This document shows, piece by piece, positions 4,118 to 57,490 of a stretch of DNA of 64,000 bases. Each line of letters opens with the position of its first letter. The first letter of the stretch is position 1. The translations under genes and the position numbers were made by a program. The stretch is from Bdellovibrionales bacterium (GTDB lineage: Bacteria > Bdellovibrionota > Bdellovibrionia > Bdellovibrionales > JAUICD01). The notes under the pieces are model-generated. The model saw only the letters and a list, made by a program, of their open reading frames with translations. It was not told the DNA's origin and did no database searches. The stretch covers positions 224,001 through 288,000 of the forward strand of contig OZ241865.1 of the NCBI GenBank assembly GCA_965203275.1, in the 5' to 3' direction.

Positions 4118-4288
4118 CTAATCATTATCACTACCTGGATCGCTATCTTTGTCACCGCTACAGTCAACTGTTGTAACTGTATCAATAGCCTTCCATTGTG
4201 TTCCTGCATCATAAACAGAAGCACCTGCTTGATGACTTATAAATCCTGATAAAGCAAATACACATAATAATAAATATAAATAACGCAT
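4118..4288 (-). CDS. 56-aa putative secreted peptide, not in the ORF track (MRYLYLLLCVFALSGFISHQAGA-SVYDAGTQWKAIDTVTTVDCSGDKDSDPGSDND)
   Basis: AAGGAGG RBS 5 nt before ATG, Sec-type signal peptide with AGA site, downstream terminator. Confidence 0.75.
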   Translation of the reverse strand: MRYLYLLLCVFALSGFISHQAGASVYDAGTQWKAIDTVTTVDCSGDKDSDPGSDND

Positions 4289-4490
4289 TACGTCCTCCTT
4301 TGTAAAATGATTGATATAATATTAATTAATACTACTGATATTATTGTAACCTAATTTAAAAGGCTATGGCAATCTTTTTTTTTATTTATCTGTATTTATG
4401 TCTTAAGTTTGAGACAAATTTGAGACAAAAATCAAAAATTGTCTCAATATGAAACAGTTTTGCTTTACTCAAAGAGATCTCATTTGGGTC

Positions 4491-8923: not shown

Positions 8924-9526
8924 TTATGCTGTTTCCAAAAGAAACTTCATTAAGAGTCCTAATGCACTCACTGCAAGAGTTGTCGCAGTGATTATAATCA
9001 CAAGTATTCTATTGGTTAATGAAGATTTAAGCATTTCTATCTTTAATTGAACCTGTTCTATATCTTTCTTGGTATCAGCCCTTAGTTGCTCTATTTTTTC
9101 TGAAAGGTTATTGATATCTTTTTTAGTATCTGCCCTTAGCCGTTCTATATCTTTTTTAGTATCTGCACCTAGCAGTTCTATATCTTTCTTGGTATCAGCT
9201 CTTAAGTGTTCTATATCTTTCTTGGTATCTGCCCTTAGCTGTTCTATATCTTTCTTGGTATCTGCCCTTAGCTGTTCTATATCTTTTTTAGTATCTGCCC
9301 TTAGCTGTTCTATATCTTTCTTGGTATCAGCTCTTAAGTGTTCTATATCTTTCCTGAGGTGTTCTATATCTTTCTGAATAAGCAAGATATCTCTTTTATC
9401 AGCTACGCTTTGTAATTGGTTTTCTCTCCCCTTTTGCAAATCGATTAAAATATCGGCTTGCTGTTTTGTAAAACCACTATTTTGCAGACGTTGAAGTAAT
9501 TGTAAATCTATTGCTGGTTGTTTCAT
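8924..9526 (-). CDS. Bdr/DUF1640-like coiled-coil protein with 11-aa repeats and C-terminal TM
   Basis: LQNSGFTKQQAD N-terminus; 33-bp repeats encoding KKDIEQLRADT; hydrophobic C-terminus. Confidence 0.8.
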   Translation of the reverse strand: MKQPAIDLQLLQRLQNSGFTKQQADILIDLQKGRENQLQSVADKRDILLIQKDIEHLRKDIEHLRADTKKDIEQLRADTKKDIEQLRADTKKDIEQLRADTKKDIEHLRADTKKDIELLGADTKKDIERLRADTKKDINNLSEKIEQLRADTKKDIEQVQLKIEMLKSSLTNRILVIIITATTLAVSALGLLMKFLLETA

Positions 9527-10129: not shown

Positions 10130-11047
10130 ATGAAAAGTATAATGAAAAAAATTATTTTATCAGCTATTTTATTTATGGCTATCGTTTTGAATCTTTACAG
10201 TCAAGTTATGGCTACAGACCTTTCTGACAAAGGGTACCTAGGTCATCAAAGGGATTTTTCTGAAAATACAACAAATGATGAGTTAGACAACAGCAATCGT
10301 TTAACACCGGAAGAAATTCATAATTTTTTAGATACAATAAATACTTCTTTAGAAGCAGTAGCTAGCCGTTCTGGTTATCAATTAGATAAGTCTTACACAT
10401 ATTTAGATTTTGCAAAGAGTTTTTATCTTTTAGGTATTGGGATTGGGATAGTAGGAGGCTCTGCTGCTGTAGGAGGCAGTACTTATAACGCTGTATCTTC
10501 TGGTGCTGATTTTAATTTTACAACAGCAACAGCTACGGGCAGTGTTGTTTTAGGTCATATTATTGGTAATGTTATAACTGTGTTATTTCCTTTAGCTTCT
10601 GCTCCTGCTAAGATAAAGAAGGCTGCTACAATCACTACTGTAACAGGAGCTCTTATTACTAGTGCTACTGTGGGAGCAGGTGCAGCGTCGGCGGCTTCTT
10701 ATGTAACTGAGACTACTGATATTCAACGGAATACCCCTATTCCTGGCATTTCTGATGCTACTTATGTCAATGATCATTATAGAATGAAACTGCACTATAG
10801 AGTGACACATGCTTCAGGATCTCACACTATAGAAAATGCTTGTTTATTATTTTTTTCTATTGATCCTTTTGGTGGACTTAATGATTATGTTATGAATTTC
10901 GAATTAGATGCTTGTGATGATAGTGATATATTTCCACAAGAGCAAAAAGGATGGATTAGAATAGGTGATTTTGTTGACCCTTCTGATATACTTATGGGAC
11001 AGAGCAAGGTTGTTGCTTCAGGTCAATTTAAGTTATTAGGTCGGTAA
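10130..11047 (+). CDS. Exported hypothetical protein with Gly/Ala/Thr-rich hydrophobic segments
   Basis: Signal peptide; glycine-zipper-like GIGIGIVGGSAAVGG. Confidence 0.7.
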   Translation: MKSIMKKIILSAILFMAIVLNLYSQVMATDLSDKGYLGHQRDFSENTTNDELDNSNRLTPEEIHNFLDTINTSLEAVASRSGYQLDKSYTYLDFAKSFYLLGIGIGIVGGSAAVGGSTYNAVSSGADFNFTTATATGSVVLGHIIGNVITVLFPLASAPAKIKKAATITTVTGALITSATVGAGAASAASYVTETTDIQRNTPIPGISDATYVNDHYRMKLHYRVTHASGSHTIENACLLFFSIDPFGGLNDYVMNFELDACDDSDIFPQEQKGWIRIGDFVDPSDILMGQSKVVASGQFKLLGR

Positions 11048-11348
11048 TGAAACTGTCCAGTTCAATGATCATATCAGAGAGTTTATCAGCTTTTAAGAAG
11101 CTGTTAGTTTTTTGATTGTTAGGCTTTGAGTGTTTGGATTTTGAGTGTTAGGTTTTGGATGTTAAATTTGTTTGAGCTTTGAGTGTTAGGTTTTGTTTGA
11201 GTGTTAAAGTTTTTTAGTTTGGTTGGTTGAATCTTTTCTCTTATCTTTAATTATATATTTTATATTGTAAGCCACTTTAAGCTTCCTTTTTTGATTTCTT
11301 ATCATGATTATTTTAGTTTTAGATGGATTGTTTTATTTTTTTGTTGGT

Positions 11349-14343
11349 TTATTTGATTTGTTGAGATTTTATAAATTCAAACCAAGCTTTTTTGCTTAAA
11401 TCTGGTTTAAAATTATTTTCACTATTTTTTGAAAGTTGCTGGAGCATCAATAAGCCTTTAAGGGCAATATGATAAGCTCCATTAGCATCTGCATTTTGAG
11501 GCATAGAATGATCTTTTAATTTGCTTGAATGAAAAAAGTGACCTCGATGATCTTTGACTGGTGATATCATCCAATCTTCATCTGTGTTAACTCTGCTATT
11601 ACGCATTTGCAAAGTCAATTTAAATAATCTCATAAGCTCCTTAAAAAACTCTCTTTTATCTTGTTTTGTGATAGCCTCAATTAAACATTCTTCATCTTTA
11701 AACTCAATAGAATACTTTTTAAACAGCTCTATTATTTCTTGAGTTATATCCACTTTACGAGTATCCCATTGATTGTTCTTTTTGCTATCTCTAAAACTTT
11801 CTAGTCGGATGCCGTGACTGCATATCATCCATTTTTGTTGTAAGCCCTCTACTTTTTTGTTAAAGCTTTCATAATTTATATGAAATTCAAAATAATTTTC
11901 AGAAGGATGGAGACAAATCTGATCAAATTGACTGAAAAACTCTTTTGCTTTTCTTATAGTTTCATATCTTGGATAGAGTAAATTGATAAATCCTGTGGCA
12001 GGGCAAACTTTAGAGGTGTAATAAGAAGGAACATAAAAAATGAACCCTGTTTGTTTGCCCATTTTTTGAAAACTCTCAAACTTTTCAGTTAATTGTAAAG
12101 GTTTGAATAAACCTCCTAAGTCATGTGGCTCTTTATCCTTATCCTTAAAAATTAAGTAATGAAGTTTATCTATTAACATTTTTTCTAGCTTTTGATAAAC
12201 TTGTTTTTCTACTTTAAAGCGACCTCTTTTAAATCCAAAATTCAAATCTTCAAAGACTACAATGGCATTATGTTTAACCATTAGTTTTGTAATTTTATGT
12301 ACTACTTGAGAGAGATAACCTGTTTTAAGGTCTTTGATCTTTTCAATAGTATCCCAAGATTTTCTTGCCTGATCTCTTTCTTTTTCTCTGTTGTCTAAAA
12401 GTTTTTGGTAGTCTCTACCTTGATTCAAAGGCTCATTTAAACTATCTTGTTTCAAGATATTGCCTTTCTGGTCTATGACTGTGTAATAGGCTAGATGCCT
12501 TTCGCCTCTATCAATACCAATAATTTTCACATTATTTATATGTTTCTTAAGAGCTTGGTTGACTTTGTCATTAAATTTATTGACTTTTGACGCTTTAAAA
12601 TTACATTCAATAGGTACGTGAAAGAAATATTGATTTTTTGTAAATCTTTTATCTTTGATAATATCATAATCAAATATATTTTTTTTGCTCTTATTTTTTT
12701 TGCTTTGAATAAATTGGCCTTTAAGGTGAGTAATTTTTTTTGCATTTGAAATAGAAGCTTTTCTATAGAACAGCTCTGCCTTGCCACTGAGTTTATAGAT
12801 CACATCTTTAAGATTATCTTCATCAAACAAAGCTTTCCAATACATAGTATGAAGGTTCGGCTTACCTTTGTTGGATTTTTTCTTTTGAGAAAAATCCTTA
12901 TTATAAATTTGGAATAAATAAAGCTTACCTTCTCGAACACACTGATCAATATAGCTTTTGGATATATCTTGAAAAGTGATTTTATACCCTTGATGTTCTA
13001 CTTCACGATAAAAGTCATTTATTTCTTTATAATGTGTTGTTGGATTAAACTTAAAATCAAATTGCTTCCAGTCAGGGTGTTTTGCAATGGAATTTTTATA
13101 AAAATCAATCATCTTATACATATCTTGAAGATCAAAATCTTTCTTCTCAAAACCATTTTGAGTCTCTCCATTTTTGGTATGACTTGCATGATTTCTTATA
13201 GCTAAAATTTCTTCAGAAGGTGAGTAATTATTAATATTTTTCTGACTAAAAAAAACTTTTGGCAACATTTTACTGGCACCGGGTAATAACTTATAAATCA
13301 TTTTTTCATAATGTTCACCATTATTTGGCACATCACTATTTTCAAATAATTTCTTATGTTTTTTATCCATTATTCCAAGAAAATACTGGCTGTCTTTTTT
13401 AAATAATACACAGAAATTATCTTTTTCTTTATTTTGATCCCAACCATCTGCCAATATAGGATTTTCAAAATTTAGTTTATATTTTTCTATACTGTAAGGT
13501 TTTTTGGTGAGATAATTGCGAGTTTGATTAAAAAGTGGAACAACAGCATTTATAGACTTAAATAAAACATCAAAGTCACTGTAAAATAAGCCATCCTTTT
13601 CAAAAATATCTTTTTGATCTTTATCATTCCCTCTAATCTGAATAGATAAGGGTTTTAAAAAATGGTATAAGTCCATTAAGGACTCAAGATATTGTTTGAT
13701 AATATTTTTAGCTTTCTGATCATTTTTTAGTTTTTCATCCTTAGCATTTTTATATTTTTCTAATACTTTAATAGCTTTGGATTTTGCATCTTGTATATTT
13801 TCAAGTAGCCCAACTTTTTCAAATAAATTGCTTTCTTCATTTTTCTTTTTAATAGTGAGGGATTCAAAATATTTACAAAGAGGCTTATTAATAGCAATTT
13901 CTTTTTGTTCTTTTGTTGTTTTCCCTTGATCATCTTGATCTTCTTCTTTTAGTACTTCTTGATTTAATTCTTTATCTTTATACTGTTCAAAATATAACTC
14001 CAAAGCTTTATGAATATCATCAAAACTTAAATAAGATTGCTTTAGCCATTTTTCTCTATCTTTTAAAAGTTTTTGAGTTTCTTTTTTACCTTTTAGTAAA
14101 GGGTATACTTTTTCTGCAACATAATATTCAAGGCAACGTTGAATTACATTCCACTCACCAAAAAGATATTGTGATATATCTGTGATAGCCCGGTCATTTT
14201 TGATATAGAGTTTTTTAGGATCAGCTTCTTTTAATACCTTTAAAGATTCTATTAAATTTAGACTTTCTGTGATATTGTTTTCATTCTGATTGATCATTGT
14301 ATTGATTTGTAAATTCTTTGAATATTGAATCTGGGTTTTTCAT
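11349..14343 (-). pseudogene. cas12a: cas12a (cpf1) split by an internal deletion/frameshift: mini-ORF 14343-14281 (MKNPDSIFKEFTNQY...) plus 982-aa ORF 14297-11349
   Basis: NQTRNYLTKKPYS, KLNFENP.LADGWD.NKE, YKLLPGASKMLPKVFF, GKLYLFQIYNKDFS, IIGIDRGERHL, VFEDLN.GFKRGR, NADANGAYHIALKG; ORF starts inside REC2. Confidence 0.9.
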
Positions 14344-14505
14344 AATAGATAATCCTTTCATTTATTGTGTATTATGAGCTGTATTTAATTATGCATTGCA
14401 TAATTAAATGCAGTGCAATTGACCAAAGGCAAAACCAAGATGCTGACAATACTATCGTATCAAATGAAGATATAATACTTGCCTTCTGTTTATTGATACT
14501 TTTTT

Positions 14506-14533
14506 TTATCGGTATAAATGCTATTTAACTTAA
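14506..14533 (-). promoter_or_regulatory. sigma28/FliA-like promoter facing cas12a
   Basis: Minus strand TTAAG-N15-ACCGATAA. Confidence 0.5.
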
Positions 14534-14665
14534 GCATCTAAAGTATTTTATGAACCAAAAAATATAAAAACAGTTAAATCGTCTCAATTTGAATCAATCA
14601 TTTGATAAAAGTGTTTCAAAATGTATCAGTTATTTAATAATTAATAATATTTTTTATTTTTATGC

Positions 14666-14692
14666 TTTAGCTAAAATTTAATCTACCGATAA
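14666..14692 (+). promoter_or_regulatory. sigma28/FliA-like promoter facing the Cas12a2/a3-like gene
   Basis: TTTAG-N14-ACCGATAA. Confidence 0.5.
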
Positions 14693-14801
14693 GTTTATAT
14701 GTTCTTACAAAATCAATTTTTTCATCAAAGCATACATATTTTTAAAACTATATTTTAATAAATTTTTAAATTTAATTCATTATTTCAAAAAAGGAGAAAT
14801 T

Positions 14802-17800
14802 ATGTCCCACTCTACCAATAATAATAAAACAAACTTTGACAATCCATATCAATACACAAGAGCTATTCGCTTTAAATTAGAACCTCAAAAACAAAGTAAA
14901 TGCTTTTTGAAAAAAATAAAGCAGAACAATCAAGAAGAAATTAATCTTAAAGATTTATCAAATCTTTTGCTAGAAATATATGAAAGTTTACATCAATTGA
15001 TCTATGTAGATAGTAAAAAAGAAGAAAAGAACGATCAAGATTCCAAAGATAAGAGTAAAAAATATAGCAAAAAAATATCTATCAATAAAACATGGCTTAA
15101 AACTTGGCACAAAGAACAATTCTACTATTTAATCAAAGAAAGCAACAACAGGCAAGGTAAATATGCTCTTAAAGATTTAAAACCTATACACTATTTAAAT
15201 CAATGGTTTCAAAACTGGGGAGAATTAAGCAAGCAGTTTAAAAATCTGTCTCAAAAGCCATTAGAAGATCAGGCTCGAAAAAGTGAAATAGCTCATATCA
15301 TTAGGAGTTTACTGAATATAAAGAATTTACCTTATATTATGGATTTTCTTAAAGAACTTCATACTAAAAATACACAGCTAGATGAAAAAGTTAAAAAGCT
15401 TAAAGAAAATTTAGAGAAGGCACAGAAAGACCTCAGAAATGCAGAAAAAGAATATTTATCTAGCAGTGCAGAAGGTATTGAAATAGCCAAAGCTAGCTTT
15501 AACTATTACACTGTTAATAAAAAATCAAAAGAAGACTATAGTAGAGAATTGGAAGAATTGAAAAAAAAGAAAAAAGAAAATCATTTTTCAAATATTGAAG
15601 AAGGTAAAAATAACACTTTTTTAATAAAGTTAGATGCAAACCATTTTTTAAATAAAAAGCTTAAGGATATAGAATCAGATCAAAAAATAAAAAAACAAGC
15701 AGAAATATTCACATTTAAAAGTGAACAAGAAAAAGAATGGCTTAAAAGATATTGTGCTGAGTATAAGCTTGGAGATATAACTAAAGACACCTGTCATCTT
15801 TCCTTAGATAGAACGTATGATTTGATGAAATCTTTTAAAGCAGAACAAAAATCTATTTTTTATGAAGTGATGGCTCATATTGCAAGTGATGAAAAGAAAG
15901 GGAGTAGTTACACAGTCAAAAATAAAAATCTTAAAGATTATGAATTGAGTTATAAACATCTTAATCAAGAAAGTATCAATAAAACATTTTCTTTATTCCA
16001 ATTTAATGACAACCATAAAAATTTACATTATAGAAATAGATCAGTAGAAAAATATAATGAGTTTGTGAAGCTAACTAAAGACATTCAAAAAGAAGGCAAA
16101 GCAAAAGAAAGAGGAAAATGGCTTTTTTGTTCAAATAAAAATCATCGTTTTTATTTTACAGAATATGGTGAATTTTGTGATTACTACAAAAAAATAGCAC
16201 AGGACAGAGGTAAACTCATTGCTCAAATCAAAGGCATTGAAAAAGAAAGAGATGAAGCTGTGCAGACAGAGTATTGGAGTTTAATTTATATAAAAGCTCA
16301 TCAAAAGCAACTTTGGTTGATACCTAAAAGCAAGATGCAAGATGCTAAAAAAAATATTAATCGTCTTCAAGATAGGCAAAGTAATTCACTTCAAAAAGAT
16401 AACTTTTGTATTTTTGAATCTTTAACTATGAGAGCCTTACATAAACTGTGTTTTGCTGAAGAAAGCACTTTTGTAAGAGATATGCCAGAAGATTTACAGA
16501 ATCTTCAAAAACAAGCTAAAGAAATCAAAACTGATGGAGATAAACAAAAGGTCAAAGAAAAAGATCAGAAAAAACTTGAATATCTCAAAGAAGTATTAAA
16601 GTCAGATTACGCTAAAGACAAACTACAATTGGAAAACTTCAATCTAAAAGAAGTTAATAAAGCGGAAACCTTGCAAGAATTTGAAAAAGCTTTAGAAAAA
16701 AACTGCTACTATGTTGTTCAAAAAACATTTGCTAATAAAGAAGATAAAGAGGATTTCATTAAAAAGTTTGATGTCATTGTGTTAAATTTAACTTCTTATG
16801 ACTTAGAAAAACGAAACAAAAATACTCATCAAAACCCTCACATTGAAACTGAAAATAAATATCATACTGATTTATGGCAAGCCTTTTGGAGTAATTTTTG
16901 GAATAAAGAGATAAATGTAAAAAAAATTAATGTGGGTGAAGTACGTTTAAACCCTGAAGTTAAAATCAGGTATCGGAGTATCGATAAAGATTTAGAAAAA
17001 TACCTTAAAGAAAGAGGTTTTTCTGATCAATTTAAGCATCGTAGGAAGCAGGAGCAAATCACAGTTAATTTCACTTTAGCACTTAATGCAGGTAAGAGAT
17101 ATGAAGAACTTGCTTTTACAAAACCTGAAGAAATAAGAGAGAAAATCGATAACTTCAATCAAAACTTTAATAATGAGCATGATTTTAAAACAGCTTGGAA
17201 ATATGGCATTGATCGAGGACAAATTGAACTGGCTACTTTATGCCTTGTCAAATTTGATCCTGATAAAGACATGTACCAAGTCAATGGTAAAAGCATAGCT
17301 CAGCCTACTTTTCAACAAAAAATTAAGTGTTATACCTTAAAAGACTACAATCATTCAAAGCCTTATGATGATGGTAAGGAAAGAAAAGAAACTGATCGTA
17401 AGGCTATTAAGAATCTCTCTTATTTTCTTGATAAAAATAAAGAACCCAATAAAGATATTTTTGAGTCTCATTCTGTCTCTTGCTTAGATTTGACCACAGC
17501 TAAGGTGATCAAAGGTAAAATTTTCACCAATGGTGATGTGATGACTTACTTGAAACTCAAGAAAGCATCAGCTAAACGCCAGCTTTATGAAATTTATGCT
17601 CAAAGCAAAATAAATGCAAGTGTAACATTGGAATGGAGTGAATACAAAGATGGTAAAGAAAAAGAACATCATCCTGAAGGTGTTTTGAATATAAAGTATG
17701 GTGAAAAAGAAATAAAAACTATTTATGAATATTCCACAAAATATAAAGATGTTCTATCTAAGGAACAAATTAAAACAGATCTCAATCGCTATCTTGAGGA

Positions 17801-18779
17801 ACTATTTAAAAATAAGACAAGTCATACACCTGAAATTTTACAAATCAATCATTTAAGAGATGCCATCACTGCCAATATGGTAGGTGTGATCTGTCACTTA
17901 CAGAAAACATATCCTGGCTTTGTGATTTTAGAAGATCTCGATCCAGGAAAAGTCAATCGTGTATCAGATGGTTTTCAAGATGATGAAAATATTGCCCGCA
18001 GATTAGAGAATGCTCTTTATAATAAGTTTCAAGCTTTGGGTTCAGTTCCGCCTCATGTTAAAGACATTATTCAACTGAGAGAAGATGTCAGAGATGAACA
18101 ACAGAAATGTGCAGTAAATATAAATACAATTGAAGACAATATAAAGAAAGTTAAAGAAGAACTCAATAAGTTAAATGAAAAAACGCCTCAAAATATTATT
18201 GATAAATACAAAAGAGAATTAAAAGTTTTAGAAGACCAGAAAAGTCAATATAATAAAAATTTTGTCAAGTCTTCACAAATAGGAGTGATTGTTTTTGTGG
18301 ACGAAAAAAATACAAGTCAAAACTGCCCTTACTGTGAAAAAGGACAGCCAGCATCAGAAAAAAACAAAAAAAAGAAATTCCAAGAAAAACAGTTTGTTTG
18401 CCAATTATGTGGTTTTAATACTCAAAATCTTAATAAAGAACATATTTTAAAAGACATCAATGACCCTGATAAAGTAGCGGCTTATAACATTGCTAAAAAG
18501 CTAAAAACCTCTAATGAGATTGGTAAAATGGAGCCACTTCAGTCTCAAAACACTGAAGGTAAAAATGTACACAGTTATCAAAATAAAAATCATCGGACTA
18601 AACAAAAGCATGATAACTCAAAAAAAGGTGAAGCCTTCAACAAACAAAAGCACAATCTACAAAAAATCCATCCACTACAGAGCAATCAAAGGCAGGCAAA
18701 TTCAAAGCAACTAAAACATCAACCCTTTAAAGATTTAAAAAAGATGATCAGTGAAGAAAATGAAAGGCCCCATCCTTAA
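14802..18779 (+). CDS. Type V effector of the Cas12a2/Cms1 group (Smithella-Cms1/Cas12a3-like), 1325 aa
   Basis: RBS AAGGAG; TRAIRFKLEP; AKASFNYYTVNKK; RGKLIAQIKGIE; RLNPE; RuvC YGIDRG (D804), ILEDL (E1044), NDPDKVAAYNIA (D1223); Zn ribbon CPYC..CQLC; linked V-A-type array. Confidence 0.88.
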   Translation: MSHSTNNNKTNFDNPYQYTRAIRFKLEPQKQSKCFLKKIKQNNQEEINLKDLSNLLLEIYESLHQLIYVDSKKEEKNDQDSKDKSKKYSKKISINKTWLKTWHKEQFYYLIKESNNRQGKYALKDLKPIHYLNQWFQNWGELSKQFKNLSQKPLEDQARKSEIAHIIRSLLNIKNLPYIMDFLKELHTKNTQLDEKVKKLKENLEKAQKDLRNAEKEYLSSSAEGIEIAKASFNYYTVNKKSKEDYSRELEELKKKKKENHFSNIEEGKNNTFLIKLDANHFLNKKLKDIESDQKIKKQAEIFTFKSEQEKEWLKRYCAEYKLGDITKDTCHLSLDRTYDLMKSFKAEQKSIFYEVMAHIASDEKKGSSYTVKNKNLKDYELSYKHLNQESINKTFSLFQFNDNHKNLHYRNRSVEKYNEFVKLTKDIQKEGKAKERGKWLFCSNKNHRFYFTEYGEFCDYYKKIAQDRGKLIAQIKGIEKERDEAVQTEYWSLIYIKAHQKQLWLIPKSKMQDAKKNINRLQDRQSNSLQKDNFCIFESLTMRALHKLCFAEESTFVRDMPEDLQNLQKQAKEIKTDGDKQKVKEKDQKKLEYLKEVLKSDYAKDKLQLENFNLKEVNKAETLQEFEKALEKNCYYVVQKTFANKEDKEDFIKKFDVIVLNLTSYDLEKRNKNTHQNPHIETENKYHTDLWQAFWSNFWNKEINVKKINVGEVRLNPEVKIRYRSIDKDLEKYLKERGFSDQFKHRRKQEQITVNFTLALNAGKRYEELAFTKPEEIREKIDNFNQNFNNEHDFKTAWKYGIDRGQIELATLCLVKFDPDKDMYQVNGKSIAQPTFQQKIKCYTLKDYNHSKPYDDGKERKETDRKAIKNLSYFLDKNKEPNKDIFESHSVSCLDLTTAKVIKGKIFTNGDVMTYLKLKKASAKRQLYEIYAQSKINASVTLEWSEYKDGKEKEHHPEGVLNIKYGEKEIKTIYEYSTKYKDVLSKEQIKTDLNRYLEELFKNKTSHTPEILQINHLRDAITANMVGVICHLQKTYPGFVILEDLDPGKVNRVSDGFQDDENIARRLENALYNKFQALGSVPPHVKDIIQLREDVRDEQQKCAVNINTIEDNIKKVKEELNKLNEKTPQNIIDKYKRELKVLEDQKSQYNKNFVKSSQIGVIVFVDEKNTSQNCPYCEKGQPASEKNKKKKFQEKQFVCQLCGFNTQNLNKEHILKDINDPDKVAAYNIAKKLKTSNEIGKMEPLQSQNTEGKNVHSYQNKNHRTKQKHDNSKKGEAFNKQKHNLQKIHPLQSNQRQANSKQLKHQPFKDLKKMISEENERPHP

Positions 18780-18863: not shown

Positions 18864-19038
18864 GTGGTCATTGCCCAAGGTGTAAGAAAGAAATTTTTCC
18901 TTAACATTGTGTTAAAAAACGAGAGGATCCTTCCTACTCAAAGTGAACAGGCTTTCTAGGTTGCCAGCTTTTGAGAAGGCGAAAGCCTTCAGCTGGCAAC
19001 CAGAAAGTGACCAGAGGTCAGTTCACTTTGAGTGAACC
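18864..19038 (+). repeat. Family-A repeat, full copy ~18899-19037
   Basis: Complete nested stem set seen directly. Confidence 0.85.
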
Positions 19039-19041
19039 AAA

Positions 19042-19402: not shown

Positions 19403-19642
19403 ATGGAATCTTATGTCTCTATATCTTTTTTGAATGATTTTATTTTTTGTCCTCGCTCTATTTACTTTCATCAAATTTATGGTAGGCAAGAGCAAATCTC
19501 TTACCAAGATATTCCACAAATTGCAGGCAAAGTAGCCCATCAAACTATTGATTCCAAATCTTATAGCACTCGCAAAAACATCCTGCAAGGCATTCCTGTT
19601 TATTCTTCAAAATACCAAATATATTGCCACACATATTATTAA
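19403..19642 (+). pseudogene. cas4: cas4 N-terminal half (V-A PREFRAN type), truncated
   Basis: ISFLNDFIFCPRSIYFH..AGKVAH; lacks the nuclease motif and C-terminal cysteines. Confidence 0.85.
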
Positions 19643-20285
19643 AAATAAAATAGAAAATCAAAACCACTTACTAAGAAAAGTTCGCAACAAAGATCATTCG
19701 ATTAGGCAAAGTATTGAAAGGCTTGATATTTTCAAAGAAAATCTTAATTCACGTCAATTAACACTGAAAGAAATTTTAGGATTTGAAGGTATTGCTTCTA
19801 AAGAATATTTTAAAATTTTGTTTAGAGATTGCAACTGGATTGTGCGAAGACCAAGAGTGAAACATGATCCTATCAACTCTTTGCAAGATACGGGTTATAC
19901 AATGCTTTTTAATTTTATTGAAGGTTTATTGGGGCTTTATGGTTTTGATGTTTATAAAGGAGTGTATCATCAGTGTTTTTATCAGAGGAAGTCCCTCGTG
20001 TGTGATTTAATAGAACCTTTTAGACCTATTGTGGATGCTCGCATTAAGAAAGCGTATGGACTTGGACAAATCAAAAAAGAAGACTTTATAGAGGTCAATA
20101 AACAATATCGTCTTTTTGGAAAGAAAAGCCAACCTTATATTGCGTGGCTTTTAAAAGCTATTTTGAAACATAAAAATCCTATGTTCTTTTATGTGCAACA
20201 ATATTATAGATGCTTTATGCAAGAGAAGCTTATAAAAGATTATCCAATTTTTCTTTTGTCACAGCAAGAGGAGGATAAATGTTGA
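19548..20285 (+). pseudogene. cas1: cas1 lacking its N-terminal part; Cas1 similarity starts at ~19620
   Basis: IATHIIKNKIENQ, GFEGIASKEYF, RRPRVKHDPIN, GYTMLF, GVYH, SLVCDLIEPFRP. Confidence 0.85.
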
Positions 20286-20554
20286 TTGTGGCTTATGATA
20301 TTAGCGAGGATAAATTAAGAGGAAAGCTAGCTAAGTTTTTGTGCAAATTTGGCTATCGTTTACAATATTCTGTTTTTCAAATCAGGAACAGTGAAAGAAT
20401 GTTAAATAATTTAATATCAGAGATAGAAGGTTCTTTTGTTAAACATTTTACACAATCTGATAGTGTGATTATTTTTTCTTTGAGTCGAACTTGTAAGGTG
20501 ATTAAGTTTGGTTATGCTCAAAATGATGATGAGGATTTAATCTTTGTAGCTTAA
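20279..20554 (+). CDS. cas2: CRISPR-associated Cas2
   Basis: MLIVAYDISEDKLR...FGYRLQYSVF; RBS GAGGAGG. Confidence 0.95.
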   Translation: MLIVAYDISEDKLRGKLAKFLCKFGYRLQYSVFQIRNSERMLNNLISEIEGSFVKHFTQSDSVIIFSLSRTCKVIKFGYAQNDDEDLIFVA

Positions 20555-21286: not shown

Positions 21287-21693
21287 ATTGAAAGGGACTT
21301 ATAAATTTCTACTGTTGTAGATCTTAAAGGATATATTGATGGTCGCTTCTATTGAAAGGGACTTATAAATTTCTACTGTTGTAGATTGAAGATTTTGATT
21401 TAAAAGCTATAAATTGAAAGGGACTTATAAATTTCTACTGTTGTAGATACAAGCCCTGCAAATCTTACTTTATTATTGAAAGGGACTTATAAATTTCTAC
21501 TGTTGTAGATGTTAATGTTGGCTTTGCTCCACAGTTTATTGAAAGGGACTTATAAATTTCTACTGTTGTAGATCCGGTGTTATTGCCTCAAGGGCTGTAT
21601 ATTGAAAGGGACTTATAAATTTCTACTGTTGTAGATAGATATTCTTTTGCATCAATTCTATCATTGAAAGGGACTTATAAATTTCTACTGTTG
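21287..21693 (+). CRISPR. Type V-A array: 6 identical 36-nt repeats ATTGAAAGGGACTTATAAATTTCTACTGTTGTAGAT, a 31-nt truncated terminal repeat, and 6 spacers of 26-28 nt
   Basis: Repeats start at 21287, 21351, 21413, 21475, 21538, 21601, 21663; 3' 19 nt is the canonical Cas12a handle AATTTCTACTGTTGTAGAT. Confidence 0.98.
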
Positions 21694-21698
21694 ATTCA

Positions 21699-21975
21699 TT
21701 TTCACTAAAAATAAACCAGCCTCTGGCTGTTTTTGGGCAATCAGCCCGACGGCTCTCGCCGTCGATCAAAGGCTGATTGCCTCAAAAATCCGTTTATTTT
21801 TAGTAGGAAGAATCCTCTTGTCTCTTTACAAGATGTTATGGAAACAAGATGTTTATTTCACTTTGATATTTTGCCATTGACAAAATGGTCATTGCCTCAA
21901 AAAATTATGCATTTTGAGTAGAGGAGGATCTCTTCGTCTCTTGAATACATGTTAAGGAAAAAAGGTTTCCTTAAC
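21699..21975 (-). repeat. Family-A repeat cluster abutting the terminal CRISPR repeat
   Basis: ttcactaaaaataaaccagcctctgg...cgacggctctcgccgtcg... Confidence 0.85.
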
Positions 21976-22033
21976 AGGTCCGCCTGCTCTTAAGGATCTA
22001 AAAACAATCGGATCGTAATGCATTTGTTAGGTG

Positions 22034-22064
22034 ATTGAAAGGGACTTATAAATTTCTACTGTTG
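22034..22064 (+). CRISPR. Orphan copy of the truncated terminal repeat
   Basis: 22034-22077 is identical to 21663-21706 (44 nt). Confidence 0.9.
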
Positions 22065-22107: not shown

Positions 22108-24165
22108 ATGTATGCAAGCCAGAATGGTCATATAGATATTGTAAGGCTTTTAATAGAACAAGATGCTGACGTAAATTATCAAGATAATAATGGAAATACT
22201 CCGGTATCACTGGCCAGGGAAAATGGACATAATGACATTGTAAGAGTTTTGAATGATGCCGGTCCAACTCCGACACCATCTCCAAGTCCAACCCCGGCCC
22301 CGAGTCCAGTTCCAACACCAACTCCAAGTCCAACCCCGGCCCCGAGTCCACTTCCAACACCGAGTCCATCTCCAAGCCCAACACCGAGTCCAACTCCAAG
22401 CCCAACTCCGACACCAGTTCCAACTCCGAGTCCAACTCCTACTCCAAGCCCGACACCAACTCCAAGCCCAACACCGACACCAAATCCTAGTCCAACACCA
22501 GGTCGAACCCCGGCATCATCGATACGCATACCGGATATGGTCGGTCGTATCATAGACAACTGTTGGACAAATCTAAATTTCAATGCCTGTATTTATAGTG
22601 TATCAGGTTCTTTTAACTATGCTGTTAATATAAGAGATAATATAGGCAGTTATCTTGAAAATAGTCATTATAAAATAAAGCCCGCTTATACGTTTTCAGA
22701 TGGAACAACAATGGAACGGGCTACATTAAGAAATGGAAAATGGAGAACTGCCATTCCTTCTTTGTCAACGTTAAGAAATGATTATATAACTGTTAATAAT
22801 GTAAGGGCATATCAACCTATGGTTTATTATTGGTTAATGTATCAAAGAGAATGGATGAAACTAAATGCCGGTGGATGGCATGCAGATAATAAAGGTATAA
22901 TTGTAGAAAGTCCAGGGAACAAAGAAGGTCCCTGTCGTAACTGGGGAGGATGCTGGTCACCGTCAGACAAAACAATAGTCTTAAATGAATCTTACTCTTT
23001 AGAAGTGGATATTATAGCTCACGAAGCAGGTCATGCAAATCTTACTTACGCTAGAGGACAAAGGGCAGGATTCATTCGATCTAAAGACAGTCGTTTTTTT
23101 ATGCGTTGTGGAAGTTTTTTAGGTTGCTTTGCTGCTATTAATGAAGGGCAGGCTGATTTTCATGTATACATGGCTTTTACAGGCGTTTTATCAAATGGAG
23201 ATTTTATATCATGTGACGATGAAATAGCTGTGTCCAGGAGTCCAAAGAACAATAACACCACTGCATCTACCATGTTCCAGGAGAGCAAAGGACAAATACA
23301 CTGCATGGGCGTTGTCTACAATTCTATATGGTATGAAGTTTATACACACCCACAAACAGATCAAGTAAGGATTGCTCAACTATTTCATAATCACTTACCT
23401 TTATTGACTTATTCTGATGATTTTGCTGATGCTGGTTTTAAGATATTAAATCTTTCAAGACAAATGGAATTTTCAAATCAAGTATATCAAATCATTGGTG
23501 ATGCTTTTGTTAAGAGGGGCTTAATGAGAAAGTCTGGCAATATATATATCAAAAATAGCAATACAGCTTTAATTGGTGCAAGTCGGGATGGGCATATTGA
23601 GATGGTAAAAATTTTGATAGCGGAAGGGGTGGACGTCAATCTTCAAGACAAATTTGGCTACACAGCTTTAATGTCGGCTAGTTATAGCGGCCATATAGAG
23701 ATTGTAAAGCTTTTTCTAGTGGCCGGAGCTAACGTCAATGATCAAGAAAAATATGGCTTTACGGCTTTAATGTGGGCAAGCGAATACGGCCATATAGAAG
23801 TTATAAGATTATTGCTAGAGGCCGGAGCTAACGTCAATTTTCGAGTAGAGGCCGGAGACAACACCCGTCTTCAAACAATAAATGGCTATACGGCTTTAAT
23901 GTTGGCAATCGCTAACAGCTATACTGATATTGTAAAGCTATTGCTAGCGGCCGGGGCCAACGTTAATATTCAAGATCAATCCGATTACACGGCTTTAATG
24001 ATGGCAGTTGCTTATAATCAAATTGAGACTGTAAAGTTATTGATAGTGGCCGGAGCGGACGTCAATCTTCAAGGCAATGATGGCTATACGGCTTTAATGA
24101 TTGCTAGAAACCAGGGCCAAAAAGAAATTGTAAGACTATTAAAAGAGGCCGGAGCTACAAAATAA
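22108..24165 (+). CDS. Ankyrin repeats, Pro/Thr/Ser linker, M4/M36-like Zn metalloprotease, ankyrin repeats; probably 5'-truncated
   Basis: G.TALM.A repeats; AHEAGH...NEGQADF; ankyrin motif DGRTAL continues upstream of the ATG to an in-frame stop at 22063. Confidence 0.8.
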
Positions 24166-56621: not shown

Positions 56622-56640
56622 AAAACCTTCGTACGTTTTT

Positions 56641-57490
56641 TTCCCTAAAATTGAACTAGCCTCTGGCTACTTTTGGGCAGTTAGCCCGACGGCTCACGCC
56701 GTCGATCAAAGGCTAACTGCCTCAAAAGCTTGTTCAATTTTAGGAAGGAGGATCTCTCCGTCTCTTAACACCATGTTAAGGGTTTGTTTCACTAAAAGTA
56801 AACTAGCCTCTGGCTACTTTTGGATAGCCAGCCCGACGGCTTTCGCCGTCGATCAAAGGCTGGCTACCTCAAAAGTCCGTTTACTTTTAGTAGGGAGGAT
56901 CTCTTCGTCTCTTAACACCATGTTAAGGGTTTGTTTCACTAAAAGTAAACTAGCCTCTGGCTACTTTTGGATAGCCAGCCCGACGGCTCACGCCGTCGAT
57001 CAAAGGCTGGCTACCTCAAAAGTCCGTTTACTTTTAGTAAGGAGGATCTCTTCGTTCCTTAACACCATGTTAAGGGTTTGTTTCACTAAAAGTAAACTAG
57101 CCTCTGGCTACTTTTGGATAGCCAGCCCGACGGCTTTCGCCGTCGATCAAAGGCTGGCTACCTCAAAAGTCCGTTTACTTTTAGTAGGGAGGATCTCTTC
57201 GTCTCTTAACACCATGTTAAGGGTTTGTTTCACTAAAAGTAAACTAGCCTCTGGCTACTTTTGGATAGCCAGCCCGACGGCTTTCGCCGTCGATCAAAGG
57301 CTGGCTACCTCAAAAGTCCGTTTACTTTTAGTAGGGAGGATCTCTTCGTCTCTTAACACCATGTTAAGGAAAAAGTTCCTTTCTTACATCTGTTGCCTGC
57401 AAAGGCTTACGCCTTTGCGGTCATTGCCCAAAAGTAGCCAGAGGCTAGACCACTTTTAGTGAAACAGAGGCTGGTTTATTTTTAGTGCAA
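56641..57490 (-). repeat. Tandem array of family A: four near-identical 147-bp units (~56773-57360) plus divergent flanking copies
   Basis: Period 147 bp measured (ttcact at 56788 and 56935). Confidence 0.95.

Follow-up and report, generated by a model that had tools for sequence, protein, structure and literature searches.

The REC1 domain of Cas12a (Cpf1), the type V-A nuclease of CRISPR systems, holds the guide-target duplex, and its WED-I strand belongs to the repeat-binding WED fold seen in established Cas12a structures. The cas12a gene examined here lies in 64,000 nucleotides of DNA from a Bdellovibrionales bacterium (contig OZ241865.1, positions 224,001 to 288,000), referred to as the window. 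From REC2 to the C-terminus the sequence it encodes is like FnCas12a and the ReChb protein (8qwd): the catalytic residues are there, as are the domains PI, RuvC and Nuc. It differs from them in having lost about 326 N-terminal profile positions, and what remains is not in frame with the native start. Judged by its sequence, the gene is better described as a remnant than as a variant architecture. We consider it a recent pseudogene and most likely a dead remnant in a decaying CRISPR locus, with a probability of roughly 0.85.

Type V loci with two nucleases have a precedent in cas12a and cas12a2, which occur in tandem by one shared array (described in passages of Dmytrenko et al. 2023, PMC9811890). 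The window is similar in having two Cas12a-family effectors, one DNA-targeting and one RNA-triggered, beside one Cas12a-type array, but the partner is Cas12a3 and the genes are divergent. Cas12a3 nucleases recognize RNA targets, cleave the 3' tails of tRNAs and retain the residues for processing CRISPR RNA (crRNA), according to passages of PMC12851939; their crRNAs are self-processed, according to passages of a preprint (bioRxiv 2026.01.16.699850). The searched passages of these two papers do not mention cas12a-cas12a3 tandems, which their supplements may list. The Cas12a3 homolog of the window resembles these nucleases in its RuvC motifs and zinc ribbon and is set apart by a long K/Q-rich C-terminal tail. 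Among the 10 of 42 matches listed in a literature search on truncated or pseudogene cas12a, no paper on natural cas12a remnants appears.

CRISPR-Cas loci with cas pseudogenes decay in host-associated bacteria with shrinking genomes. The window is like such loci in its multiple independent deletions and frameshifts, its short array and its repeat-element insertions; its decay is only partial, however, and one effector per system (Cas12a3 and Cas9) is intact.

The 5' end of cas12a and the deletion junction

All positions are window coordinates unless another genome or locus is named. G000 is the window's own genome and G001 is a sister species of the same genus; P0001, P0002 and P0003 are database homologs of the window cas12a, P0001 being the representative of the cluster that holds the window's own protein. 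The cas12a features are as follows.

14352 to 14357, minus strand: AAAGGA, a Shine-Dalgarno-like motif 8 nt ahead of the native cas12a start, read directly from the sequence
14281 to 14343, minus strand: native 5' end of cas12a, with ATG at 14343 and codons 1-15 reading MKNPDSIFKEFTNQY
14294 to 14299, minus strand: deletion junction, placed within about 5 nt by the limits of protein alignments and by frame translations
11349 to 14297, minus strand: cas12a remnant, a 982-aa open frame with REC2 from profile position 18, WED-II/III, PI, RuvC I-III and Nuc

Translation from ATG 14343 runs through MKNPDSIFKEFTNQY into five out-of-frame codons (NDQSE) and then a TGA at 14283-14281 on the minus strand, giving a product of 20 aa. 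An in-frame ATG at 14361, upstream of ATG 14343, accounts for the 26-aa open reading frame (ORF) at 14281-14361 in the ORF listing. ATG 14297 opens the 982-aa ORF in the +1 frame, with LYIKNDRAITDISQYLFGEWNV within it and its end at 11349. The stop of the mini-ORF is 16 nt downstream of ATG 14297, and the two ORFs overlap. No Shine-Dalgarno-like motif was seen upstream of ATG 14297 on sequence inspection, and a promoter and terminator scan of 11000-15000 returned 26 promoter-like sites against 22.7 expected, which is uninformative. The first-pass annotation, made from the letters and ORF translations, had described an AAAGGA ribosome-binding site, a typical Cas12a start at ATG 14343 and a stop at 14281, and all of these are present on the minus strand. 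Its out-of-frame ATG 14297, opening a 982-aa ORF that starts in REC2, was borne out by the frame translations and Pfam.

The N-terminal match in protein alignments ends by base 14299, and the match to REC2 has begun by 14294. Between these limits, 4 bases at the junction put the two halves of cas12a in different frames, with a shift of +1. The microrepeats noticed at the junction in the first pass were found as ATCAAT on either side (14306-14301 and 14294-14289), in a region of 28% G+C where chance occurrence is possible; a deletion mediated by this microhomology may be inferred. We propose that one deletion of about 1 kb took out codons 14 to about 341 of cas12a and shifted the frame by +1. 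Because of that shift, ribosomes starting at the native ATG would make the 20-aa peptide only. The remaining 982 codons would still be open only for want of time for stops to build up.

Domains and residues lost and kept

The extent of the loss was measured on four scales. In an alignment of both pieces with full-length relatives, the mini-ORF corresponds to residues 1-13 of the 1352-aa P0003, where the long ORF sets in at residue 342, so that 328 codons are gone on this scale. On the FnCas12a scale residues 13-364 are absent and the long ORF starts at residue 365. ORF residues 4-979 match positions 327-1287 of the 1288 in the NCBIfam profile TIGR04330 (1031 bits), with the first 326 absent. 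Finally, the ORF covers residues 331-1259 of the Protein Data Bank (PDB) chain 8qwd_A (E 1.7e-301), with about 330 residues missing. The loss of about 328 codons, on which the four scales agree, falls within the 300-380 first suggested.

Most of WED-I went with the lost segment, together with REC1 in full and the beginning of REC2. In the 982-aa ORF, Pfam matches REC2 (from profile position 18), PI, RuvC and NUC but not REC1 (PF18501), which P0003 carries at residues 50-279. The KTLRF motif of the WED-I strand (...KTLRFEL...) is absent, and no continuous frame runs from the native start. Relocation of the REC1 segment within the genome was rejected, PF18501 having 0 matches (E<=1) across the closed 2.57-Mb genome.

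The RuvC residues D596, E683 and D937 and the Nuc residue R899 are kept, aligned to FnCas12a D917, E1006, D1255 and R1218. The PI domain (PF22222) lies at residues 339-438 (E 1.5e-30), with K290 and K347 aligned to FnCas12a K613 and K671. The processing residues H524 and K548 are also kept (FnCas12a H843 and K869), while the K852 column holds a Q in a gapped, K-rich and poorly aligned stretch. We take H843, K852, K869, D917, E1006, R1218, D1255, K613 and K671 to be the functional positions of FnCas12a, and the letters at the aligned sites fit these except in the K852 column. The earlier statement that the PI, the crRNA-processing region and the RuvC acids survive holds for the RuvC D/E/D, the PI lysines and the processing H and K, two of the three processing residues.

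Homologs and strain variants

The short form is not the normal architecture of the family. REC1 (PF18501) was found in 115 of the 120 best homologs. The five without it are P0001, which has the same start as the window ORF, and four with differing starts that look like fragments from their sequences. In a survey of 384 genomes of the window's order (cas12a at E<=1e-50), 10 had cas12a, and the nine besides G000 carry uninterrupted frames of 1064-1647 aa. A short form as the usual family architecture was rejected on these homologs and order-wide genomes.

The remnant is the single cas12a match in its genome, which is one closed 2.57-Mb contig. Among the best 120 homologs it is 64% identical to P0003 and 75% identical to P0002, itself an ORF starting mid-REC1. 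A scan of genome contigs for closer intact alleles gave Cas12a of <=48% identity only, and family-wide and order-wide genome searches gave no relative above 58% local identity. Metagenome contigs yielded no match in a protein scan and none to the exact 46-nt junction pattern. The remnant (11349-14297) has a G+C content of 28% compared to 34% for the whole window. A foreign origin of the type V locus is suggested as a possibility by this low G+C and agrees with the closest relatives being outside the host's order.

The same allele recurs on other contigs. An identical 982-aa protein is present on two contigs, the longer of 2,582,838 bp, and two more ENA contigs (22,734 and 25,705 bp) hold remnant proteins from the same start, of 981 aa (starting MIQNENN) and 724 aa (starting MINQNENN). 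These strain variants were taken from 90% protein clusters and are compared at the protein level. The 724-aa version terminates in a frame change. The neighboring cas12a3 is split into 967 + 247 aa on the contig with the 981-aa remnant and into 1163 + 71 aa on the contig with the 724-aa remnant; on a third strain contig it is intact (1328 aa). The three strain contigs measure 22,734, 25,705 and 10,692 bp. In addition, Logan contigs from six runs in three studies contain 0.87-1.00 of the sampled 31-mers of 11349-15000.

These data bear on the idea that the full-length gene is real and that about 1 kb at 14294-14299 was collapsed or dropped in assembly. The microrepeats flanking the junction would fit such an artefact. 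However, the genome is one closed contig and the identical protein stands on a second one, the two shorter ENA contigs give ORFs with the same start, and the six Logan runs hold most or all of the sampled 31-mers. There is also no REC1-like sequence in the assembly, and the junction is unique sequence and not a long repeat. An artefact is thus extremely improbable.

A dead remnant or a shortened protein

Several observations weigh against a dead gene. The 982-codon frame is open in the window strain and also in a second strain (981 aa), and these two strains differ by 10 substitutions and three single-codon indels. All three indels are in frame, a result expected about 1 time in 27 for random indels, although they sit in A-rich repetitive stretches. 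Amino-acid divergence in the remnant (10/980) is not above that in cas12a3 (12/965). All alignable catalytic, PAM-contacting (protospacer-adjacent motif) and processing residues are intact, the frameshifts on the other strains' contigs could be homopolymer or sequencing errors, and the position of the mini-ORF stop past ATG 14297 is a geometry that can permit weak termination-reinitiation.

Re-initiation after the 20-aa leader could yield a REC1-less 982-aa Cas12a with a job that does not need REC1. It might bind or process repeat RNA, or it might titrate crRNAs and the RNAs of solitary repeats from or to Cas12a3. The frame open in two strains with indels in frame only, the intact processing H and K, RuvC triad, Nuc arginine and PI lysines, and the overlap of ATG 14297 with the leader ORF all favor such a protein, and there are eight extra promoter-driven Cas12a-type repeat units, described below, to which some protein might bind. 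On the other hand, ATG 14297 lacks an SD-like motif before it, a third strain contig has the ORF shortened to 724 aa, and G001 keeps just a 121+57-aa relic of the lineage. There is no conserved short architecture among the 120 homologs, and the WED-I strand, part of the repeat-binding fold, is lost. The open frame itself is expected by chance: judging from codon content, one expects 0.78 nonsense changes alongside the 10 missense differences, and the probability of no stop under neutrality is about 0.46. For this reason, selection cannot be read from the 982-codon frame being open. Nor would a helper be needed, since Cas12a3 processes its own crRNA in the published passages cited above.

We therefore regard a re-initiated REC1-less protein as unlikely. 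It was the lesser option of the first-pass annotation, and the missing Shine-Dalgarno motif, the 724-aa strain version and the neutral open frame lend it no positive support. Its survival, through termination-reinitiation, as a repeat-RNA-binding or processing module (a crRNA sponge or chaperone) is very unlikely. If true, a 'half Cas12a' would buffer or regulate the guide pool used by Cas12a3, namely six array crRNAs and eight solitary repeat RNAs.

The pseudogene reading agrees with the option preferred in the first pass, a recent knockout of the DNA-targeting arm. It draws on the out-of-frame loss, the full-length norm, the recurring allele and the further decay across the locus, the strains and the sister species. 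'DNA-targeting arm' is an apt term because the divergent neighbor is an intact RNA-triggered Cas12a3 homolog. Before the loss, cas12a would have been the DNA cutter in a type V locus with two effectors, sharing a Cas12a-type array with the RNA-triggered, tRNA-tail-cleaving Cas12a3. The whole locus appears to be eroding in this lineage, with a dead acquisition module, 6 spacers and further breaks in sister strains, and Cas12a3 and the type II-B Cas9 would remain as possible working effectors. We infer that the cas12a remnant gives no functional product. Selection may have been relaxed through redundancy with Cas9, through chronic inhibition by the eight solitary repeat RNAs, or both.

Annotators should label the 982-aa ORF a pseudogene fragment and not a compact Cas12a for engineering.

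The sister species

Comparison with a sister genome had been proposed as a check on the knockout, and G001 holds both an intact cas12a-cas12a3 pair and an eroded relic of the remnant's lineage.

G001:C1:2584000-2603900 (L018): type V locus with intact cas12a, cas12a3, cas4, cas1 and cas2, in the order cas12a, TfoX_N ORF, EcsC-like fragment, cas12a3, EcsC-like gene, cas4, cas1, cas2
G001:C1:2694805-2695348 (L006 1495-2038): relic of a P0003-like cas12a, of which the first 121 and last 57 codons remain

The G001 cas12a is intact at 1407 aa, with REC1, REC2, PI, RuvC and NUC, and its cas12a3 encodes 1334 aa. A 59-repeat array lies upstream of the cas genes on the opposite strand. The window remnant is 47% identical to the intact G001 cas12a over the C-terminal two-thirds, and the window cas12a lineage differs from that of this tandem partner. 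When the 5' end of the window cas12a was aligned as DNA with the G001 relic, divergence was too great for junction placement. By their sequences, members of the P0003-like lineage may carry separate lesions in up to three genomes. The relic adjoins a YhgA/Transposase_31-like gene fragment. In the G001 type V locus, a 212-aa EcsC-like gene occupies the place of the Adt1 auxiliary gene in published Cas12a3 loci.

The loss of cas12a is by itself ordinary gene decay, and its value lies in the context. Here nature provides a Cas12a/Cas12a3 locus whose DNA-cutting partner was, on our reading, lost while its RNA-triggered partner was kept. With the window genome and the intact tandem of G001 as a pair, one could ask what either nuclease adds and why one of them can be spared.

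The neighboring Cas12a3 and the rest of the type V locus

The remaining features of the type V locus are as follows.

14802 to 18779, plus strand: Cas12a3 homolog, 1325 aa, intact, head-to-head (divergent) with cas12a, from PDB matches
19403 to 19642, plus strand: cas4 remnant, residues 3-75 of the 187-aa Cas4 and then a stop (tblastn against G001 Cas4, 62% identity)
19548 to 20285, plus strand: cas1 fragment, with homology from 19599, Cas1 residues 95-322 (tblastn against G001 Cas1) and Pfam Cas1 profile positions 98-270
20279 to 20554, plus strand: cas2, 91 aa, apparently intact (Pfam PF09827, E 3.7e-14; 70% identity to G001 Cas2)
21287 to 21693, plus strand: CRISPR array of 6 full 36-nt repeats (ATTGAAAGGGACTTATAAATTTCTACTGTTGTAGAT) and 6 spacers of 26-28 nt, with a degenerate 7th repeat

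The 1325-aa protein matched PDB chains 21we_A ('Cas12a3', E 1.2e-71) and 9hlx_A (Ba1Cas12a3, E 2e-58), and the search with it returned no Cas12a2 or Cas12a chain at E<=1. It is 50% identical to the G001 ortholog over the full length. Its motifs GIDRGQ, VILEDLD, DPDKVAAYNIAKK and CPYC...CQLC are kept in that ortholog (ILEDL, DPDKVAAYN); they include a CxxC...CxxC zinc ribbon, and Pfam gave a weak TNB match. The structure-chain matches point to a Cas12a3 homolog, and membership of the related Cas12a4 clade is also possible. This protein is presumed, from its intact sequence, to be the working effector of the locus.

The adaptation genes are broken. One deletion of about 0.6 kb took Cas4 residues 76-187 together with Cas1 residues 1-94, and spacer acquisition is therefore dead. 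The cas4 remnant itself has no Pfam match. The array lies 7 kb from cas12a on the opposite strand, downstream of cas12a3. The 3' end of its repeat is the canonical Cas12a-type handle AATTTCTACTGTTGTAGAT, and a copy of the terminal repeat at 22034 is separated from the array by an inserted repeat element.

The type II-B system and the array spacers

A second CRISPR-Cas system is present elsewhere in the window's genome.

G000:C1:2266380-2278500 (L020 and beyond): type II-B CRISPR-Cas, with about 23 repeats (GTTTCAGTAGGAAGGGTTTTGACTTATGCTTATGAAAG), cas4, cas2, cas1 and cas9

Its Cas9 is intact (1459 aa) and FnCas9-like (E 9e-60), and the locus also holds a partial duplicate of the 3' end of cas9. 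Its cas1 is split into pieces of 120 and 145 aa, so adaptation genes are broken in both CRISPR systems of this genome.

Spacer 1 of the type V array matches 26 of 28 nt of a spacer in the type II-B array. The other type V spacers have no match >16 nt elsewhere in the genome. Because the spacer 1 match lies inside the type II-B array, both arrays sampled the same invader. A chromosomal match at 26/28 could also suggest that the loss of cas12a was selected, for example if the nuclease was harmful through a self-targeting spacer. This is highly improbable, as the match is an array spacer and not a chromosomal target, no other spacer matches at >16 nt, and the broken adaptation genes, along with the broken cas12a3 in other strains, suit general erosion better than a targeted knockout. 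Self-targeting as the cause was rejected, the sole long spacer match being inside the type II-B array.

Solitary repeat units

The genome also carries Cas12a-type handles outside any array.

G000:C1:363994, 960068, 1168380, 1599446, 1600241, 1744663, 1884192 and 2428091 (L021-L027), all plus strand: eight solitary, exact 19-nt Cas12a-type handles

Solitary repeat units have been published as RNA anti-CRISPRs (Racr), of which RacrVA1-3 inhibit MbCas12a (passages of PMC10651486). The eight units of the window genome are like these in that each is a stand-alone repeat away from any array, with a promoter-like sequence of its own within 250 bp. Most have a consensus-like promoter placed so that transcription would begin at the handle or close to it. 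Read by eye, three of the eight show a -35 TTGAGT, 17 nt, a -10 TATACT and 6 nt before the handle; the others have TTGAAA, TTGACA, TTAACA or no clear -35 and TATACG or TATAAA as the -10. A terminator follows the handle in at least six units, in several at 18-20 nt. Seven of the eight lie 3' of a small transmembrane or coiled-coil ORF (six at 13-47 nt and one at 121 nt), and upstream of the eighth no ORF of this kind reaches 60 aa. An HNH gene of phage type lies 650 bp downstream of two units, with resolvase fragments near one unit and a helicase-HNH gene near another, and no clear prophage was delimited. In G001 there is no solitary handle outside the array, save one copy about 750 bp past the array end.

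For the units, an anchored match >13 nt is lacking genome-wide, PAM-flanked seeds do not exceed chance, and local complementarity of >=11 nt is absent within about 1 kb of them. With neither targets nor local complementarity, a CreTA-like reading was unsupported. The eight units could be decoys, fixed guides of Cas12a3, or neither. The broken adaptation genes in both systems, together with the eight units, hint that resident repeat mimics and the erosion of the system that they mimic may be linked, which can be tested.

Repeat elements and flanking genes

Hairpin-rich, short repeat elements resembling miniature inverted-repeat transposable elements (...CTACTCAAAGTGAAC...GTTCACTTTGAGT...) occur in the window at 18920-19040, 21700-22030 and 56635-57369 and in L020 at 4230-4380. 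They adjoin both CRISPR arrays and interrupt the type V array in its terminal repeat. The stretch at 56635-57369 is a 5-copy tandem of a 147-nt unit.

Two further genes flank the type V locus.

8924 to 9526, minus strand: 200-aa protein with 11-residue coiled-coil repeats and a C-terminal membrane anchor
22108 to 24165, plus strand: 685-aa protein with ankyrin repeats and a P/T-rich repeat region

Ankyrin genes flank several of the solitary repeat units as well.

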